A DNA stretch of 64,000 nucleotides from assembly GCF_016026235.1 (NCBI RefSeq), contig NZ_CP065613.1; one strand, 5' to 3'. The position numbers and the translations under genes are program-made. Source of the stretch: Escherichia coli. Its GTDB lineage: Bacteria > Pseudomonadota > Gammaproteobacteria > Enterobacterales > Enterobacteriaceae. Each line of letters opens with the position of its first letter. The first letter of the stretch is position 1. A model generated the notes under the pieces. That model was not told the DNA's origin. It saw only the letters and a list, made by a program, of their open reading frames with translations, and made no database searches. This document shows positions 17,216 to 25,982 of the stretch, piece after piece.

Positions 17216-19615
17216 ATGTCCTTAAAAGGTCTGCGCTTTACGCTGGAGGCTGACGGCCAGGAGCCGGACACCTTTGCAGTGGTGAATTTCAGGTTAATCC
17301 AGAACCAGTCTTATCCGTTTGTGATGAGTGTGGATGTTGCCAGCGACTCTTTTATGCAGACGGCGGAGATGCTGCTGGAGAAGAAGGCGACGCTGACCAT
17401 CTGGCAGGGCGTCATCCCGCTGCGTTATGTTACCGGCGTGGTGGCGGGCTTTGGCATGCAGGAGAACAATGGCTGGCAGATGCGTTACCACCTGCGTATT
17501 GAGCCGCCGTTATGGCGGTGCGGGCTGCGGCAGAATTTCCGTATCTTCCAGCAGCAGGATATCCGGACGATATCGGCCACGTTACTGAACGAGAACGGCG
17601 TCACGGAGTGGACGCCGCTGTTTTATGAGGACCATCCGGCGCGGGAGTTCTGTGTGCAGTACGGGGAGTCGGACCTGGCGTTTCTGTCCCGGCTGTGGGC
17701 GGAGGAGGGAATTTTCTTCTTTGAGCGGTTTGCGGCGGACAGTCCGGAGCAGAAGCTGACGCTGTGCGACGATGTGGCGGGGCTGTCACAGGCGGGAGAG
17801 CTTCCGTTTAACCCGGACACATCGGCAGGAGCGGAGACAGAGTGTGTCAGTATGTTCCGTTATGAGGCGTATGTCCGCCCGTCGTCGGTGCAGAGCCAGG
17901 ATTACACGTTTAAGGTGCCGGACTGGCCGGGGATGTATGAGCAGCAGGGTGAGAACCTGAACGGACAGCTGGCGCAGTACGAGATATTTGATTATCCGGG
18001 AAGGTTCAAGGATGAGCAGCACGGCAAGGATTTCACGCTGTACCAGATGGAGAGCCTGCGCAGTGATGCGGAAAAGGCCACAGGGCAGAGTAATTCGCCG
18101 AGGCTGTGGCCGGGAACGCGGTTTACGCTGACGGGGCATCCGCAGAAGATGCTGAACCGTGAATGGCAGGTGGTACAGAGCATTCTGTCAGGAAACCAGC
18201 CGCAGGCGCTGCACGGCAGCCAGGGAAAGGGAACCACACTGGGAAATCAGTTAGAGGTGATACCGGCGGACCGGACGTGGCGTCCACGGCTGCAAAGCAA
18301 ACCGAAGGTGGACGGGCCACAGAGCGCCATTGTCACCGGGCCTGCGGGAGAGGAAATCTTCTGCGATGAACATGGCCGGGTACGGGTGAAGTTCCACTGG
18401 GACCGTTATCACGGGATGACGGAGGCGAGTTCATGCTGGGTGCGGGTATCGCAGGCGTGGGCGGGGCCGGGGTTTGGTAACCTGGCGATACCGCGGGTGG
18501 GCCAGGAGGTGATTGTTGATTTTCTGAACGGAGACCCGGACCAGCCGCTGGTCATGGGCCGGACGCACCATGAGGACAACCGTTCGCCGGGCGACCTGCC
18601 GGGAACGAAGACGCAGATGACCATCCGGTCGAAGACCTATAAAGGAAGCGGATTTAACGAACTGCGCTTCGAGGACGCCACCAGTAATGAGCAGGTGTAT
18701 ATCCATGCGCAGAAGAACATGGATACGGAGGTGCTCAACGACCGGACAACGGATGTGAAACATGACCATACGGAAACCATCGGTAACGACCAGAAGATAA
18801 CGGTGGTGAAGGGTCAGACGGTTCAGGTCGGTACAAAAAAAGAGGGGGGCCACGACCAGAGTATCACGGTGGCGAACGACCGGCGTATCACGGTACGTAA
18901 TGACCAGACTCTGAAGGTGACGAATGACCGGACGGTGAGCGTGAGTCACGATGACGGTCTGTACGTCAGAAACGACCGTAAAGTGACGGTGGAAGGGAAG
19001 CAGGAGCATAAGACGACGGGGAACCATATCAGTCTGGTGGAGGGGAAACACAGCCTGGTGGTGAAGGGGGACCTGGCGGAGAAGGTGAGTGGCGCGCTGG
19101 GGATAAAAGTGGACGGGGATATCGTGCTGGAGAGCAGCAGCCGGATAAGCCTGAAGGTGGGTGGCTCGTTTATCGTCATTCAGCCGGGCGGAGTGGATAT
19201 TGCCGGGCCGAAGATAAACCTGAACGGTGGGGGCAGTGCGGGGACACCGGTGGGGACGATGCAGCCGGCGGTGCTGGAGGCTCCGGAGGATGAGAGCAGT
19301 GATGATGGCAGTGATGACTCCGGAGAGGATAGTGGCAATCCCGCAGGGAGTGACGGAGGAGGTGATGGCGGTGACGATGAAGATGATCCTGAAAAATATA
19401 CCCTCCAGTTCCATTTTACGGACGATGACGGGATACCGTATTCAGAGACGCAGTATATTGCCTTTTTTGAGGATGGCACACAGACGCGTGGTGAAACAGA
19501 CAGAGAGGGATATACAGAAATATTTTATACAGATACAGCACAGGAAATTAAAGTCCAATTGTTATTTTCGGATGCTTTTTATATTGAGCCGGAGGGGCAT
19601 TATGGCAGGGAATAA
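17216..19615 (+). CDS. vgrG: VgrG (TssI) spike protein with acidic C-terminal extension
   Basis: 799 aa; gp27/gp5-like body, repeated RNDxT/V-type beta-helix motifs, C-terminal acidic linker (DDGSDDSGED...GGDDEDD) plus about 70 aa tail. Confidence 0.9.
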   Translation: MSLKGLRFTLEADGQEPDTFAVVNFRLIQNQSYPFVMSVDVASDSFMQTAEMLLEKKATLTIWQGVIPLRYVTGVVAGFGMQENNGWQMRYHLRIEPPLWRCGLRQNFRIFQQQDIRTISATLLNENGVTEWTPLFYEDHPAREFCVQYGESDLAFLSRLWAEEGIFFFERFAADSPEQKLTLCDDVAGLSQAGELPFNPDTSAGAETECVSMFRYEAYVRPSSVQSQDYTFKVPDWPGMYEQQGENLNGQLAQYEIFDYPGRFKDEQHGKDFTLYQMESLRSDAEKATGQSNSPRLWPGTRFTLTGHPQKMLNREWQVVQSILSGNQPQALHGSQGKGTTLGNQLEVIPADRTWRPRLQSKPKVDGPQSAIVTGPAGEEIFCDEHGRVRVKFHWDRYHGMTEASSCWVRVSQAWAGPGFGNLAIPRVGQEVIVDFLNGDPDQPLVMGRTHHEDNRSPGDLPGTKTQMTIRSKTYKGSGFNELRFEDATSNEQVYIHAQKNMDTEVLNDRTTDVKHDHTETIGNDQKITVVKGQTVQVGTKKEGGHDQSITVANDRRITVRNDQTLKVTNDRTVSVSHDDGLYVRNDRKVTVEGKQEHKTTGNHISLVEGKHSLVVKGDLAEKVSGALGIKVDGDIVLESSSRISLKVGGSFIVIQPGGVDIAGPKINLNGGGSAGTPVGTMQPAVLEAPEDESSDDGSDDSGEDSGNPAGSDGGGDGGDDEDDPEKYTLQFHFTDDDGIPYSETQYIAFFEDGTQTRGETDREGYTEIFYTDTAQEIKVQLLFSDAFYIEPEGHYGRE

Positions 19616-20405
19616 TAATACTAGTGGGACTTCACAACCCGAGTCGCAAGTATGTGTAGTACCGCAAAAAATTACAAATAAATTTAAAATAATGATGAGT
19701 AAGGCTTGTAAAGCACAGAAAATGGTTTTATTGAAAAGAGCAGATGATATTATGTCATGGGAGGGGGAACAACAACGAGATTTTATTAAAGTTTTTGGCC
19801 TTAAAGGCGAGGACATTATAAAAATCAGAAAGGTTGGGGAAGATACTGGGAAACGAATGCAAGCGAGACTATTCATAATGGATGGCATCAGACGAATAAT
19901 GACGATTGCAAATGGTTTGACGATCGAAAGCTATAAAGATTATACGAACTGCAATGAATTTGCTGCTTTTATTAGTCCACATCTTGATCCTCCTTACATT
20001 GTAAATATCGGAGCGCATTTTGAATACAGACATGGTATAAAACAGTCGGTTACAGGTAGAGACTCTCATGTAAGTACACTTTGCCATGAAATGTCCCATA
20101 TATTTTGGTATTGGGGTGACAATCAAAAAGGTGGTATGTGGACTCAGGATTATACGGGTATTAATAAGTTCGCAACAAGTAATAAGGATGAAGTTAGCTA
20201 TGAGAAACATGTTTCAGTGGCTAATGATCTGGTTACATTGCGTAAAGATCAGTTATTTGAGAATGCATATAATGTTGAAAGATATTTTTATATAAAATTA
20301 AATGATGAAGATATTGAAGCTCAAGATGAGAATATGTTAGCAAAAAAAGTAGAGGATAAAATAAAAGAGATAGAAAAATGTTTTGATGAGTTGATGGGGA
20401 AATAA
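19602..20405 (+). CDS. Putative VgrG-associated effector, zincin-like metallopeptidase candidate (HExxH)
   Basis: ATG at 19602 overlaps vgrG stop by 14 nt (track ORF 19227..20405 begins inside vgrG). AT-rich; motif STLCHEMSHIFWYWGD...WTQDYTG (HExxH plus a downstream Asp). Confidence 0.45.
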   Translation: MAGNNNTSGTSQPESQVCVVPQKITNKFKIMMSKACKAQKMVLLKRADDIMSWEGEQQRDFIKVFGLKGEDIIKIRKVGEDTGKRMQARLFIMDGIRRIMTIANGLTIESYKDYTNCNEFAAFISPHLDPPYIVNIGAHFEYRHGIKQSVTGRDSHVSTLCHEMSHIFWYWGDNQKGGMWTQDYTGINKFATSNKDEVSYEKHVSVANDLVTLRKDQLFENAYNVERYFYIKLNDEDIEAQDENMLAKKVEDKIKEIEKCFDELMGK

Positions 20406-20468
20406 GATGAAGAGGTTGGCTTTCTATAATCTAAATTATGTTGTACTGATGGTTTTTTTCTTTGTTTT

Positions 20469-21155
20469 TTGCCATTATCTATTGCAATTGCAATAGATAA
20501 TGAGAATCTTTTTGTAAAAAAATACAGATTCGGTTTTGAACGAAGAAGTGACAATGGGAAACCAATTATTTATCTTAGCCATAATTTAGCGCCAGAGGAA
20601 AATATAAGTAATGAATTAACAAATGATGTTGTTGTTAAATTGGTGGTTAAGCCACATGCTGAAAATATTTTAGCTACTATAACTTTTTATAACAGTAGTA
20701 CTAAATCGTATTTTCTCCCCAGAATATATTATCCAAAGAACTTCCAAAAAGGAAATGGAGATGTATTTGATGCTTTGTGTGATGACGAATTCTTGATTAC
20801 ATCAGGAAATATTAGCTTAGACTATCTAGGAGGCTTTTGTCCCTTTGAGCTTGATTTGAATTTGAGCCGATGGGTGGAAATTACGGCAGGTAAAAAAATA
20901 TCTTTTGATGTAAAATTGAATGATATGCATTCATTTCTCCCCAGTTTAAATAATTATCATATAAAAACATTAAACTACAAACTTGTTAGGAGAAAATGGT
21001 TTGTATTAAAATCAATTAATGAAACATTCCTCTCTATTTTGATGAAAAGATACTCATGTAATGAATATGATTTTAGAGCTATATCATTTAGTGGAGAGGG
21101 ATGTGATAATTATGAATTTGATAAAAATACGTTTTTTTTGTTAATCAAATATTAG
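20469..21155 (+). CDS. Hypothetical protein, immunity candidate for the upstream effector
   Basis: AT-rich 228 aa ORF directly downstream; begins with TTG in the track; a 29-codon ATG-initiated hydrophobic peptide (20407..20496) lies in another frame just upstream across a T-run. Confidence 0.3.
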   Translation: MPLSIAIAIDNENLFVKKYRFGFERRSDNGKPIIYLSHNLAPEENISNELTNDVVVKLVVKPHAENILATITFYNSSTKSYFLPRIYYPKNFQKGNGDVFDALCDDEFLITSGNISLDYLGGFCPFELDLNLSRWVEITAGKKISFDVKLNDMHSFLPSLNNYHIKTLNYKLVRRKWFVLKSINETFLSILMKRYSCNEYDFRAISFSGEGCDNYEFDKNTFFLLIKY

Positions 21156-21394
21156 ATAAAGATGATGAGCAACATTCTGTTCATATTAGGTCTAATGAAT
21201 TTTCCATCAATATCGATGGAAGCTTGGTAAAGCAACCTTATTGATTAAAATGTATCGCAGGTTTTATTTTCTGTAATGCTGGTGCATGTGCGTAAATATT
21301 TCTTAAGAGCCGGAAACACCTCTTCCGCCTTTATCGACGATAAACCTACCGCCAGAACCGGTGATGCCATTGACTGCGGTGGCGTGGTTAAAGG

Positions 21395-21732
21395 TGGCGG
21401 GCGATGTGGTGCTGGAGAGCAGCAGCCGGATAAGCCTGAAGGTGGGCGGTTCGTTTGTGGTCATCCATTCAGGGGGCGTGGACATCGTCGGGCCGAAAAT
21501 CAATCTCAATAGCGGCGGTAGTCCGGGAACGCCGGTGCCGACGCTGCAACCGGCGGTTCTGAAAGCGCTGGCAGATGATAAAAGTTTAGCGGCTGAGCAA
21601 AATGATAGTAATGCATCGTCCGATCAGAATGATAACAACGATGAGGGTGAGGAAGCGCCAGAAAAATCGGTGTGTAAGGAGTGCCTGAAAAGGGCGCAAG
21701 AAGCCGCCGCCGTTTTTGCGCCTCGTGGATAA
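21395..21732 (+). pseudogene. vgrG 3-prime fragment (orphan VgrG C-terminal region)
   Basis: 21395-21560 is near-identical at DNA and protein level to vgrG 19103-19270 (GDVVLESSSRISLKVGGSFVVI...GPKINLN); upstream sequence is unrelated to vgrG; distinct C-terminal tail. Confidence 0.7.
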
Positions 21733-21738
21733 GGGAGA

Positions 21739-22509
21739 ATGACAATGATAACAGTATCGCCACACGCTACCGATCAAGACAAATATATTATCTGGCTGAA
21801 GCAAGCTGAATCATTCTGTTCTGCCGCTGGTTTGGATTACATAGATGTGCTTGTTGACCAGGCTGGAACCGACCAACCTTTGCAAAATGATATGCTTCAT
21901 CTGTGGCCAGCCATTCACTGGTATGCCCTGTTTGAAGGAACGCCTGAAGCTGAGACGATGGAGTATTCCCCTGTAGTGTTACGCCTGTACTTTGCGCTCA
22001 GTAGCCATCGCAAATTTCTGGCACAACTGATGGCGTCATTTGCTGATACGCCGCGTCTTACTTTGTTGATATCCCCTCTTACATTCGACCTGCTGGGGCG
22101 GCATCTTCAGGTATTGTCACAGGTTCAGTGGGAAGAACAGACCGGATTGCTGCGTTACTATGATAATCGGGTGTTCCCTTTACTGTTCACACATGTTTTG
22201 ACTAACGAGCAGCAGGCGACATTTACTGATATTGCGTTGTTCTGGAGCTGGTTAGACCGTGATGGTGAGATTAACTGGAAATCAGGAAGTTTTTCACCAG
22301 AACGCAGGCTTACTGACAACCCGGAGATGAATCGGGTGGATGATGTACAGGTGGGATTGATGGGCTGTATCTGCGACGCTGAAGTCCTGATGAAGGAGAA
22401 AGCAGTCAGTGAACTCAGTCAGGAAAGCTATTTTGCCCACTGTCTTGATATTGCTTTCAGAGCCAATGACGCGAAATATTTCGGAGCTTTGCGGGACTTC
22501 GAAGGATAA
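21739..22509 (+). CDS. DUF4123-like T6SS effector adaptor (Tap/Tec-type)
   Basis: 256 aa immediately after the vgrG fragment (RBS AAGGGAG); size and position typical of DUF4123 adaptors. Confidence 0.6.
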   Translation: MTMITVSPHATDQDKYIIWLKQAESFCSAAGLDYIDVLVDQAGTDQPLQNDMLHLWPAIHWYALFEGTPEAETMEYSPVVLRLYFALSSHRKFLAQLMASFADTPRLTLLISPLTFDLLGRHLQVLSQVQWEEQTGLLRYYDNRVFPLLFTHVLTNEQQATFTDIALFWSWLDRDGEINWKSGSFSPERRLTDNPEMNRVDDVQVGLMGCICDAEVLMKEKAVSELSQESYFAHCLDIAFRANDAKYFGALRDFEG

Positions 22510-22822
22510 TATTGTGGTGATGTACGGGGAGATTTATCTGTTTAAAAGTCCGTAGCTGTTAATATCAAGAGATAATCGTGAAATAAACGGAAAATCAAGC
22601 TCGACATGTAATGGTAGTATCCATCATGTTGCATTTGTGTTCGATCGTAATGTCAGTTCACTTGGCTGCAATATATTTTGCGTAATATCATCAATGCTCT
22701 GTCGATATTCCAATGTGTGACAATCGAAAGATATGCATTTTATTTGCTTCTTTGTCAAAACTTTATTGTCGTAGAAACAATACCCATCAATTAAAATCTC
22801 TCAAAGTAAAAGAACCAGCAAC

Positions 22823-23377
22823 ATGTCCAGCAAAATAAGGAAAAGTATCAGTATGAGAGCGATTTTCAAATGTTATTCTCTAATGATTTTATTTGCAGTA
22901 TCAGGCTGTTCAATGGCAAAAAATAGCGGTGATTACACTGCTGTGGATATTAATGGGATAAATCATACGGATAAGGATATAAATTATATACACATCAATG
23001 GTTACGGCGGACCAAATATTGGCCCATTCGGAGACGGTGGAAGATATTGTTGCGTTATGCTGCCAGATAAGTGGCATTCTGGATTAAAAGCCCGAGTTGA
23101 GTGGGAGGTTGATCCAAATACAGCTCCTCTGCCTCCAGGCTATAAGGACAGGGAGAAATTTGAAGCATGGAAGAAAGTTGCGCTAAACAGTTTTAGAAAA
23201 TATTCAACAATTGTTGATATCCCGGAATATGATGCTGAGCTTTGTGGCCTGACCGTTCATTTTCTAACGTGTAATCAGATAAAAGTGACAACCGTCTGCC
23301 AGAAATATGGTACACCAAATTATCCTATCAAAGAACCCCGCGAGATGAAGGAACCAGCAACATGTCCAGCAAAATAA
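22823..23377 (+). CDS. DUF3304-like lipoprotein, Tli1-type immunity candidate (copy a)
   Basis: 184 aa, signal peptide with lipobox VSGC; paralogous to the next gene; Cys-rich (RYCCVMLPDKWHSGLKARVEWEVDPN). Confidence 0.5.
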   Translation: MSSKIRKSISMRAIFKCYSLMILFAVSGCSMAKNSGDYTAVDINGINHTDKDINYIHINGYGGPNIGPFGDGGRYCCVMLPDKWHSGLKARVEWEVDPNTAPLPPGYKDREKFEAWKKVALNSFRKYSTIVDIPEYDAELCGLTVHFLTCNQIKVTTVCQKYGTPNYPIKEPREMKEPATCPAK

Positions 23378-23904
23378 GAAATGGAATGAATATAACAAAA
23401 GTAGTTAAAGGCTGTCTGGTATTAATTTTGATGGTGATTTCGGGTTGCTCAGCAGCTAATTACGACGATTATACTGCAGGTGATCTCCGGGCAATAAATC
23501 ATATTAAAGGTATCAGTATTAATTGGTTCACCGTAAATGGTTATCGGGTCCATGGTTTGGGCGGTGGATATTGCTGCATAATGTTACCAGAGAAGTGGCA
23601 TTCTGGATTAAAAGCCCGGATCGAGTGGGAAGTAGACCCGAACCCCCTTGAACCTATTGCAATGAAAAAAGAAGGTTTTGGCTATGAAGAAGATGCTTAT
23701 GCTAAACATGCTGCAAATTATCAAAAATATAAAGTAATTGTTGATATCCCGGAATACGGCGCTGAACGTTGTGGCCTGACCGTTCATTTTCTGCCGTGTA
23801 ATCAGATTAAAGTGACAACCGTCTGCGAGGGCTATGGCACACCGAATTATCCTATCAAAGAACCCCGCGAGATGAAGGAACCTGCAACATGTCCAGCAAA
23901 ATAA
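23362..23904 (+). CDS. DUF3304-like lipoprotein, Tli1-type immunity candidate (copy b)
   Basis: 180 aa paralog of 22823..23377; the 3-prime approx 130 bp are about 90 percent identical between the copies. Confidence 0.5.
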   Translation: MSSKIRNGMNITKVVKGCLVLILMVISGCSAANYDDYTAGDLRAINHIKGISINWFTVNGYRVHGLGGGYCCIMLPEKWHSGLKARIEWEVDPNPLEPIAMKKEGFGYEEDAYAKHAANYQKYKVIVDIPEYGAERCGLTVHFLPCNQIKVTTVCEGYGTPNYPIKEPREMKEPATCPAK

Positions 23905-25982
23905 GTGGTCTGGCTTTTCCGTGTTATGCCCCCCCGGTGTTCCCTGAAGATGGGCGATTAATATTATCTGAAGTGCAGGTAAACGCGAACTACCTAAAAC
24001 AAATCAATAAAACAGAGGAGCACAAAACCAACTGTAGTAAACAGGCTGGATTTAGAATTGGCTTTACGTGTAATCAAAGTCTGCATATTAGTCTGTTTTT
24101 TGATGGTACAAATAATAATGAATATAATGACACAAAAGTCTCTCATCCAACCAATATTGCGAAATTATTCCACACAAGTATCGAAGACCGTAATGCTGGG
24201 TATTTTTCCTATTACATACCTGGTGTAGGCACACCATTTCCCAAGATAGGTGAAATGGATTACAGCAACAGCGGACTGGAATTTGCCACCGGTGGTGAAG
24301 ACAGGATTAATTGGGCATTATTACGCCTCGTGGATGCTCTTAGCTATGCTATTGACCCTACCCAAAATGGGCTGAATGAGAAGGTGGCAAAAGAGCACAT
24401 TCCTGTCATGCGAGCTCACTGGCCGATGACTGGTGAAGTGAATCGTCGCAATGTGATTAACCCCTACCTGGAAAAATTACAGGGGCAGTTAGAACAAGCC
24501 AGTCCGCGCCTGCTAAACGTAAAGCTATTTATCTACGGATTTTCCCGTGGCGCAGCGGAAGCGCGAACCTTTGTTAACTGGTTGACTCAGTTAGCTTGCC
24601 CGCAGAGGCAACAGGTGATGCTGGCCGGTTTAGCTGTCAGTATTGAGTTTTTGGGGCTGCTGGATACCGTAGCTTCTGTGGGGGCGGCGCATGTTTTGCC
24701 GGGCGCTGCCGGTCATATGGGATGGGCCGATAGTACTCAGCAACTCCCTGATGAGCGGCACTTTCCCGGCCTGATTAAATGCTGTCGTCACTTCGTTGCC
24801 GCGCATGAGCAGCGGCTGTGCTTCCCGCTGGATTCAATCCGTCGTCCTGAAGGCAATTATCCTTTATATGCAGAGGAAGTGATCTATCCGGGGATGCACT
24901 CTGATGTCGGTGGTGGCTATCCCGTTTGCGATCAGGGGAAGTCCTGTGGAGGTCCAGATGAAATTCTCTCTCAAATTGCTCTGCATGATATGTATCTTGC
25001 GGCGTTTGATGAGGGCTCTCCATTATCAGTGCATCCTTTATTCATAACCAAAATGATAAAAGATATTTCACCATCAAGAGCTATGTCTGATTCATCAATT
25101 GCTGAATTTGTCATCGCTCCAATGTTGATTAAACGCTTCAACATCTGGCGTCAAGCGCTGCTGAACACCACCTTGCAGGGTACAGAAGAAATGATTGATA
25201 CGAGGGAAGGTTATCACTCCTATCAACTTGCCCAGGTTCTTGAAAGCGCAATTAGCGATCAGATCGGCTGGATCACCGCCTGGCGTATCGGTCGCTATGC
25301 GAATAACAGCCTTCTTGTGCAACCTTTTTATATTAAGGCGCCACAGCTGGATAAAGATGGACTTGATAAAGAGGCTAAAGCGCGTAAAGAACAAATGGAA
25401 AATATTGAAAAAGAACAGGCGAACAAGCAGAAAGGGAATGGCACACTTGATGAAAGTAATCAGGGCATTCCTATCCTTGACCCAACCAATGCTCAGTATC
25501 AGTTGCGAGAGGCAGCCCGAGAATTTCAGAGCGATTATAAAGGATGGACGCGCGATATTAACGGCAGCGTCATGGAGAAAGCCATTCAGATTCTTGTGGA
25601 TGTCATTCCTAAATATCCGGTGTATCTGATTAATGGCGATGATGAAGCAAAAGAATATCAGCAAATTAAGGCTATGGGAGACGGACTCTATCCACAATTT
25701 TTTATTGATTCACTGGGAACGGGAACGCGTACTCAGCCATGCGCTGAATTACTGGCTCTCTATGATGACCAGGTTCACGACTCCCGCGCCTGGTTTATGC
25801 AAAGTTCGCTGGGTGGACGCGAACCCTGGGGCGGTTATTTTCGCTACCGCATGATTTACTTCGGTGATGAGGCTAATAAAGAGCTGAAGCTAATCTCTGC
25901 AGATGGCAAAGTTGTTGGCGATCAGCCCACATCCAACCGGGTCATTTATTGGATGGAATCGAAAACGGTGAGCCGAGGTTAA
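23889..25982 (+). CDS. Tle1-like phospholipase effector (DUF2235 alpha/beta hydrolase)
   Basis: 697 aa; DUF2235 hallmark HISLFFDGTNNN and nucleophile elbow GFSRG; follows adaptor and lipoprotein genes. Confidence 0.7.
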   Translation: MSSKISGLAFPCYAPPVFPEDGRLILSEVQVNANYLKQINKTEEHKTNCSKQAGFRIGFTCNQSLHISLFFDGTNNNEYNDTKVSHPTNIAKLFHTSIEDRNAGYFSYYIPGVGTPFPKIGEMDYSNSGLEFATGGEDRINWALLRLVDALSYAIDPTQNGLNEKVAKEHIPVMRAHWPMTGEVNRRNVINPYLEKLQGQLEQASPRLLNVKLFIYGFSRGAAEARTFVNWLTQLACPQRQQVMLAGLAVSIEFLGLLDTVASVGAAHVLPGAAGHMGWADSTQQLPDERHFPGLIKCCRHFVAAHEQRLCFPLDSIRRPEGNYPLYAEEVIYPGMHSDVGGGYPVCDQGKSCGGPDEILSQIALHDMYLAAFDEGSPLSVHPLFITKMIKDISPSRAMSDSSIAEFVIAPMLIKRFNIWRQALLNTTLQGTEEMIDTREGYHSYQLAQVLESAISDQIGWITAWRIGRYANNSLLVQPFYIKAPQLDKDGLDKEAKARKEQMENIEKEQANKQKGNGTLDESNQGIPILDPTNAQYQLREAAREFQSDYKGWTRDINGSVMEKAIQILVDVIPKYPVYLINGDDEAKEYQQIKAMGDGLYPQFFIDSLGTGTRTQPCAELLALYDDQVHDSRAWFMQSSLGGREPWGGYFRYRMIYFGDEANKELKLISADGKVVGDQPTSNRVIYWMESKTVSRG

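Follow-up and report, generated by a model that had tools for sequence, protein, structure and literature searches.

What do the two AT-rich genes that directly follow the vgrG spike gene in an Escherichia coli type VI secretion system (T6SS) cluster encode, and do they belong together with that spike as an effector and its immunity gene? The stretch that raises this question, the window, is 64,000 nucleotides of E. coli DNA (NCBI RefSeq assembly GCF_016026235.1, contig NZ_CP065613.1) and represents the E. coli T6SS-1 (Sci-1-like) cluster; we call the two genes A and B. An initial annotation, made from the letters alone, had taken them for a possibly undescribed effector-immunity module loaded on the VgrG C-terminal tail. 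We conclude that the cassette is a genuine T6SS effector-immunity module, a rare member of a known family. Overall, we consider it likely that this is a T6SS-1 cargo cassette made of a VgrG-docked periplasmic aspzincin toxin, A, and a secreted, propeptide-related immunity protein, B.

Gene A and its predicted active-site codons lie as follows.

19602 to 20405, plus strand: gene A, encoding a 267-residue aspzincin (M35-like) zinc metallopeptidase effector without a signal peptide.

20085 to 20099, plus strand: codons for H162-E163-M-S-H166, with the two predicted zinc-binding His and the predicted catalytic Glu, unchanged in 24 of 24 family sequences and aligned with the HExxH of AsaP1 and GfMEP.

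20148 to 20150, plus strand: codon for D183, the predicted third zinc ligand, in GGM-W/G-T-x-D (the aspzincin GTxD), invariant in 24 of 24 sequences and aligned to the GTDD Asp of AsaP1 and D130 of GfMEP.

The ATG of gene A (19602-19604) precedes the vgrG stop codon TAA (19613-19615), so that the 14-nt overlap reported by the initial annotation is confirmed by the coordinates; the sequence GGAGGGG sits 5-11 nt 5' of this ATG, within vgrG. The GC content, described as far below that of the T6SS core, is indeed 34.3% for gene A and 29.2% for gene B, whereas the vgrG core has 58.6% and the entire window 52.1%. A promoter and terminator scan of 19300-21800 yielded nothing above shuffled sequences, and we therefore claim no separate immunity promoter. 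Within this region, 19400-21300 is 100% identical to E. coli FDAARGOS_943 and 99.7-99.8% identical to eleven further complete genomes; the stretch is present in 12 of 5426 complete E. coli genomes.

The HExxH motif and the downstream WTQDYTG on which the peptidase proposal had rested are both present, as STLCHEMSHIFWYWGD (HEMSH, residues 162-166) and WTQDYTG, and the proposal of a zinc peptidase with a predicted third ligand in WTQD is supported by the family alignment, in which H162, E163, H166, and D183 never vary. In aspzincins, the Asp of GTxD is the third zinc ligand. Homologues of A fell into 9 clusters in a word-indexed search, and a 7-sequence family profile searched against 1.84 billion proteins retrieved 49 representatives at 50% identity. 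The invariant blocks of the 24-sequence alignment read TG.DS..TLCHE.SH, GGM.T.D, and NAYN.E.YF. Because HExxH is invariant across this alignment, and lies within an M35 fold, we rejected the idea that it is a chance match.

Profile and structure comparisons identified the family. The A family profile matched AsaP1 (E 5e-7) and GfMEP (E 1.6e-5) among PDB sequences, and hhalign of the A family against 46 AsaP1-type protease domains gave 97.8%. An AlphaFold model of A, built with the family alignment, had a predicted local distance difference test score (pLDDT) of 89.2 and a predicted template modelling score of 0.85; its six best Foldseek matches fall on three proteins, and it has the M35 fold. 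Judged by its sequence, gene A is an aspzincin (MEROPS M35) zinc peptidase, with H162, H166, and D183 as predicted zinc ligands and E163 as predicted catalytic base.

The A family also departs from AsaP1-type enzymes. It carries an 8-residue insertion between HExxH and GTxD, and in the block NAD.HE the Asp is replaced by an invariant Tyr (Y223, in NAYN.E) while the Glu is kept (E226). This Asp is invariant in 46 of 46 AsaP1-type enzymes; in Lys-specific M35 enzymes, it provides one carboxylate of the Lys-binding S1' pocket. For GfMEP and AsaP1, the pocket residues are those reportedly assigned in the structure papers. Because the pocket Asp is an invariant Tyr in A, we infer that A cleaves envelope proteins rather than cutting Lys-specifically.

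Experimental work on relatives of A shows that the module is not undescribed, as had been suggested: RefSeq already names gene A 'peptidase M35', and proteins from two related loci, BCE049 and M35-PAR (AKO63_2955, with its immunity gene AKO63_2956), have been tested. The 'M35-peptidase' of effector locus 1 in strain BCE049 needed fusion to a PelB leader in order to inhibit growth (PMC7904677); that study tested the toxin but not its immunity gene. The gene is FQU84_RS13640 (FQU84_13640), which follows PAAR and VgrG genes, and its product shares 57% identity with full-length A (E 1e-120), with all motifs retained. Like the window, this locus type (EAEC 042 type, where EAEC is enteroaggregative E. 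coli; cluster P0006) has the order (PAAR-)VgrG, an 11-14-nt overlap, M35, and then a B-type gene (41% identical), and its VgrG tail is near-identical to that of the window. In contrast to the window, it occupies an orphan island between ansP/yncG and yddH rather than the T6SS-1 cluster, and it is common, being found in 641 of 5426 genomes, EAEC 042 included, whereas the window type is found in just 12. In BCE049 itself (NZ_CP042250.1, 11063-11834), the gene downstream of M35 is annotated as two short open reading frames (ORFs) and is apparently frameshifted; breaks in the AT-rich immunity genes thus recur among subtypes.

M35-PAR, from E. coli PAR, killed E. coli when expressed from a pET22b (pelB) construct and was neutralised by AKO63_2956 (PMC10673891). 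We identified this type through the published primers (toxin MSNDRGSS...RYFEID followed by a stop codon, immunity protein ending in LYSSMQ before its stop), and at least 195 E. coli genomes carry the primer-matching locus. The M35-PAR-type toxin shares 28% identity with A (E 4e-29), and intact B is 31% identical to the AKO63_2956-type immunity protein (E 2e-29). The effector, the immunity protein, and the VgrG tail domain of M35-PAR are of the same family as those of the window; however, the M35-PAR locus lies in a T6SS-2-type cluster, its VgrG core is only 24% identical to that of the window, and the toxin differs from A by long insertions in the peptidase and by the absence of the C-terminal helix.

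A fourth E. coli subtype occurs in the O6:K2:H1 strain C 691-04A (NZ_CP109929.1, 1-4300), which has a VgrG gene, a gene for a 200-residue M35 toxin 27% identical to A, and a gene for a 227-residue B homologue (32%). This M35 pair is followed by a 042-type orphan immunity gene. Those partial matches that were sampled from the 641 genomes likewise span the immunity half of the query only; C 691-04A was the one such locus inspected. An orphan immunity gene behind a different M35 pair is as expected for a polymorphic toxin system. A B homologue with a signal peptide lies directly 3' of every family member examined, and four distant metagenomic members have the same three parts in the same order. 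One of the metagenomic loci (L012, 2423-3686) has, after the immunity gene, a second module with PG_binding_1 and Peptidase_M23 domains plus a small ORF. The window shares with this family the effector homology to tested members, and the overlap with a vgrG ending in a conserved tail domain. The gene immediately downstream is homologous to the immunity genes of the family, but its window copy is frameshifted at both ends and so lacks the signal peptide. The claim of a VgrG-coupled T6SS cargo effector is supported.

Gene B was assigned as follows.

20407 to 21244 (if repaired), plus strand: gene B, the immunity gene, interrupted by two 1-nt homopolymer deficits; the intact allele, from alignment to the PapRG-04-4 locus (L002) and from homologues, encodes a 279-residue secreted protein.

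20453 to 20459, plus strand: poly-T tract 1, T7 here and T8 in frame, which parts the signal-peptide codons from the rest of B.

21132 to 21139, plus strand: poly-T tract 2, T8 here and T9 in frame, which removes the last 28-30 residues of B.

20469 to 21155, plus strand: the ORF listed by the initial annotation and by RefSeq (FDAARGOS_943), with a TTG start and 228 residues, equal to the middle part of B.

In PapRG-04-4, intact B starts with an ATG at the position corresponding to 20407, two bases past the stop codon of A, and its 279 residues comprise the signal peptide MKRLAFYNLNYVVLMVFFLCFLPLSIAIA/IDNE (the slash marking the cleavage site) and a conserved C-terminus. In Salmonella and in metagenomes, every homologue of B has both a signal peptide and a complete C-terminus. 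The downstream gene had been called an AT-rich, unmatched ORF in the position of an immunity gene; the composition and the immunity assignment hold, while both proteins turn out to have homologues and the limits 20469-21155 describe a form shortened at both ends.

The core of B appears to derive from a part of M35 enzymes themselves. The B model contains a beta-sandwich core at about residues 75-194, and its structure match must be to the propeptide half of the zymogen, because the mature-only GfMEP and deuterolysin are absent from the matches. Pfam PF02102 covers both the propeptide and the protease of an AsaP1 homologue, which marks the prodomain as a standard component of M35 zymogens. We fetched 80 AsaP1-homologue loci, extracted 46 full-length zymogens, and compared profile with profile. 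With hhalign, the B family matched the AsaP1 propeptide at 96.5% (E 1e-9) over 102 columns, B residues 72-186 against AsaP1 residues 21-123; the cross-controls gave 0.1% for the B family against the protease half and 0.2% for the A family against the propeptide. The real score was 68.8, whereas reversed or column-shuffled templates scored 7.7-18.7. B thus has a beta-sandwich prodomain homologous to AsaP1 residues ~21-123, and on these profile alignments we regard its core, at about residues 72-190, as homologous to the propeptide of AsaP1-type M35 zymogens.

AsaP1 (Aeromonas salmonicida; PDB 2x3a; PF02102, PF14521) therefore resembles the pair in both halves, its protease domain corresponding to A, with HExxH and GTxD conserved, and its propeptide to the B core. 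It is, however, a single secreted polypeptide of signal peptide, propeptide, and protease, whereas in the window the two parts are encoded by separate genes in inverted order, and the producer exports just the propeptide-like one. A has Tyr in place of the NAD pocket Asp of AsaP1 and has lost the YG of GTxDxxYG, and the propeptide Lys-Arg is missing in B. The latter lies in the segment Y79-x-G81-x-x-x-K85-R86, which is invariant in 46 of 46 zymogens and aligns with the most conserved motif of B, I-x-LDYLGG-x-C-x-F. The propeptide Lys of AsaP1 reportedly occupies the S1' pocket.

Because the B core is homologous to an AsaP1-type propeptide, B may block the active-site cleft of A in the way that a propeptide does, with the I-x-LDYLGG-x-C-x-F loop as the candidate contact. 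The loss of the Lys in B together with the Asp-to-Tyr exchange in the pocket of A would fit a co-ordinated change in specificity. Whether the pair is a split M35 zymogen is, in our estimate, evenly balanced: the immunity protein would then have arisen from the inhibitory propeptide of the peptidase as a separate gene with its own signal peptide and would neutralise A in the zymogen mode, with the plug (Lys-Arg to Cys-x-Phe) and the pocket (Asp to Tyr) altered together. Our literature searches on aspzincin or 'peptidase M35' with T6SS, and on propeptide with immunity, found no paper on this propeptide link.

Several results weigh against the view of the cassette as an M35 toxin with a propeptide-related immunity protein. 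A on its own reached the Pfam family Aspzincin_M35 with E 0.0022 and 18.9 bits, a partial, sub-threshold match (model positions 37-104 of 142), and no significant match to either PF14521 or PF02102, whereas a true AsaP1 homologue scores 161.7 bits. NCBIfam assigned no family to A or B, and phmmer of A against the PDB gave chance matches only; the assignment of A reaches significance in profile-profile and family-profile searches, single-sequence searches being weak. In the 24-sequence alignment, GTxDxxYG is kept as GGM[G/W]TxD but its YG half is not conserved. As for B, its model is of moderate confidence (pLDDT 69 overall, about 85 in the core), Pfam found no match to it even at E 10, its family profile met nothing relevant among PDB sequences, so that no sequence search ties it to a solved structure, and it keeps the Tyr and Gly of the propeptide loop (LDYLGG) with the K-R replaced by C-x-F. 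The nearest experimentally tested protein, that of BCE049, is just 57% identical to A. Finally, the window copy of B is frameshifted at both ends and lacks a signal peptide, and the module is decaying in several genomes, through IS600 insertion or a frameshifted vgrG.

The last of these points leads to the strongest alternative, in which the cassette of this strain is a decaying remnant, with B a pseudogene and the effector no longer used; this would be compatible with the family assignment. Relative to PapRG-04-4, each tract of the window is one T short (T7 not T8, T8 not T9), which produces the two frameshifts. Tract 1 has 7, 8, or 9 T among complete genomes, and across the 12 carriers B is 279 residues long in five, 249 (T8/T8) in four, 258 (T9/T9) in one, and 228 (T7/T8, as in the window) in two. 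Both genomes with the 228-residue state carry other damage: IS21 interrupts tssC in FDAARGOS_943, and IS600 has split the vgrG-A junction in 2018-05-2CC. The vgrG is frameshifted in two other carriers, and the cassette is rare, as noted above. On the other side, the window has undamaged ORFs for A, vgrG, and the T6SS core, the intact 279-residue gene persists in 5 of the 12 carriers, and homopolymer length is the commonest long-read assembly error. The 249-residue product is an identical protein, WP_088129800.1, in four unrelated strains, and because T8/T8 recurs in these four, the poly-T variation appears to be partly real rather than assembly error. Taking these points together, we think it possible, though the lesser prospect, that the cassette of this strain is a remnant.

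A reading of the frame also shows that the T7 allele could be rescued: relative to the frame of ATG 20407, the heptamer T_TTT_TTC (20454-20460) has X_XXY_YYZ phase, and a -1 slip on it would yield the exact protein of the in-frame T8 allele. Beginning 12 nt past this heptamer is a perfect 15+15-nt palindrome, CATTATCTATTGCAA/TTGCAATAGATAATG, at 20473-20502, in the codons for the B signal-peptide cleavage site; its RNA fold has -19.8 kcal/mol and a z-score of -4.0. Rescue of B by ribosomal or transcriptional slippage is possible, the spacer being long for classical -1 frameshifting, and the palindrome could equally be a protein-binding site.

M35 propeptides are intramolecular chaperones as well as inhibitors, and the homology of the B core to such a propeptide would also suit a role as a trans-acting prodomain or chaperone that folds or activates A, as the AsaP1 propeptide does in cis, rather than an immunity function. 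We consider this very unlikely: B and all of its homologues have signal peptides while A has none, so that the producer keeps the two in separate compartments, toxicity is neutralised by the homologue AKO63_2956 (PMC10673891), and B-type genes without a cognate A occur behind other modules, like orphan immunity genes.

Slightly less probable again is that A serves as an anti-host virulence protease rather than an antibacterial toxin. The title of PDB 2x3a describes AsaP1 as a toxic M35 protease secreted by a fish pathogen, and T6SS-1 and T6SS-2 contribute to the virulence of BCE049 (PMC7904677); however, deletion of the BCE049 effector locus left mouse survival unchanged and the 57% homologue is toxic to E. 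coli specifically in the periplasm (PMC7904677), and a dedicated secreted immunity homologue is always adjacent, with orphan immunity genes existing as well.

The least probable of the readings, that A belongs to the C-terminal metallopeptidase family of Pseudomonas aeruginosa VgrG2b (thermolysin-like gluzincins with HExxH and Glu), was rejected, as no sequence or fold match to A was detected and A has neither the Glu ~45 residues downstream of HExxH nor the 6H56 fold. It owes its appeal to the equation of AKO63_2955 with the M35 toxin domain of VgrG2b (PA0262) in PMC10673891, and to a real likeness: the VgrG2b C-terminal domain (PDB 6H56) and its partner PA0261 are, as proposed for the window pair, a VgrG-delivered HExxH metallopeptidase with periplasmic toxicity and a secreted, cysteine-containing immunity protein, PA0261 being disulfide-dependent. 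Unlike A, that domain is a gluzincin with Glu as third ligand and is fused to VgrG rather than encoded beside it. The literature's equation of M35-PAR with the VgrG2b domain is not supported by the comparisons made here.

The likely reading of A as a VgrG-docked cargo toxin turns on the spike protein, whose features are these.

17216 to 19615, plus strand: vgrG, encoding the 799-residue spike protein that carries the effector (NCBIfam TIGR03361, E 9e-179; Pfam Phage_GPD, Phage_base_V, Gp5_trimer_C).

19277 to 19396, plus strand: acidic Gly/Ser/Asp/Glu-rich linker of VgrG, residues about 688-727, after the beta-helix, read from the translation.

19397 to 19612, plus strand: C-terminal tail domain of VgrG, residues 728-799, YTLQFHFTDDDGIPYSETQYIAFFEDGTQTRGETDREGYTEIF...VQLL, the putative docking site.

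Wherever a family locus (PAR type, 042 type, or metagenomic) has upstream sequence available, the ORF before the M35 gene closes with this tail domain, and the PAR type shares it despite the divergent VgrG core. Similar acidic linkers precede the tail domain in three loci (L003, L012, and L013). Pfam recognised no domain in VgrG past residue 672, and the tail found no match among PDB sequences; our own impression is that it is transthyretin-like. M35-PAR co-precipitated with the C-terminal piece of its VgrG and not with the N-terminal one (PMC10673891). Because the tail domain co-occurs with the effector and the PAR homologue co-immunoprecipitates, A would be expected to dock on this domain of ~60-70 residues, and the initial proposal of loading on the VgrG tail is consistent with these observations.

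Two further observations concern these VgrG proteins. In a metagenomic locus (L011, 1-553), two tandem tail domains precede the M35 gene, one at the end of vgrG and one as a free-standing 78-residue ORF. The 'VgrG-PAR' and 'DUF2345-PAR' of E. coli PAR are apparently two halves of one vgrG: the VgrG-PAR reverse primer ends in ...SLSTDA-TAG where intact genomes read SLSTDAQ (CAG), the 'DUF2345' construct begins at an internal TTG (LQQSVK) ~19 codons on, and E. coli N64 (NZ_CM165879.1) has a single 836-residue VgrG.

Downstream of B lies what looks like a recombination scar. The 3' remnant of a PAAR gene (21328-21399) shares 89% identity with the PAAR gene located before this vgrG in PapRG-04-4 (L002 706-777). 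Abutting it is what remains of the 3' end of a second vgrG (about 21385-21732), with 80% identity to the matching stretch of the resident vgrG. Next, at 21739-25982, comes a complete Tle1 module, consisting of the Tla1 chaperone (21739-22509), a tandem of two Tli1a immunity genes (22823-23377 and 23362-23904), and the Tle1 phospholipase (23889-25982). Because PAAR and vgrG 3' remnants are followed by Tla1, Tli1a, and Tle1, it looks as though recombination within vgrG brought in the AT-rich cassette at the expense of most of the resident, Tle1-carrying vgrG. The dedicated VgrG of Tle1 is reduced to a fragment here. VgrG1-Tle1 of EAEC, the resident cargo of the T6SS-1 cluster, resembles the window cassette in placing a cargo effector on a C-terminal VgrG extension; in contrast to A, Tle1 is a phospholipase with a DUF4123 adaptor, and its own vgrG survives here only as the 3' remnant. 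FDAARGOS_943 carries three insertions that the window lacks: IS21 in tssC, IS600 separating the vgrG remnant from tla1, and IS1 within a tli1a gene. The window thus stems from a related genome with fewer IS insertions.

We propose the following course of events for the cassette. A would be translated in a coupled manner with vgrG, as the 14-nt overlap and the Shine-Dalgarno sequence inside vgrG suggest, and would dock on the VgrG end domain that hangs from the acidic flexible linker. Firing would then deliver VgrG with A into a neighbouring Gram-negative cell. There, by analogy with the periplasm-only toxicity of the 57%-identical BCE049 protein and the toxicity of M35-PAR from a pelB vector, A would work as a periplasmic zinc endopeptidase with the aspzincin fold. 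Intact 279-residue B would be exported through its Sec signal peptide and would protect sister cells by binding A. With B broken at its two poly-T tracts, as in the window, immunity may be defective or rescued by slippage, or the tracts may be assembly errors.

As an effector-immunity pair, the window pair is ordinary: it belongs to a polymorphic toxin family with at least four subtypes in E. coli, two of which have already been tested. The tail domain accompanies the cassette on VgrG proteins with unrelated cores and could serve as a portable module for docking cargo on T6SS spikes. That A is a true aspzincin, separate from the VgrG2b gluzincins, changes which residues and which substrates should be tested. 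The propeptide homology of B provides a testable mechanism of immunity, a plausible evolutionary origin, and a loop to mutate (LDYLGG-x-C-x-F). If the split-zymogen proposal is true, the substrate preference of these toxins would be unlike that of Lys-specific M35 enzymes, the E. coli 'M35' effectors and the VgrG2b C-terminal domain would be two unrelated peptidase families that are merged in the current literature, and there would be a documented route from a prodomain to a T6SS immunity protein.

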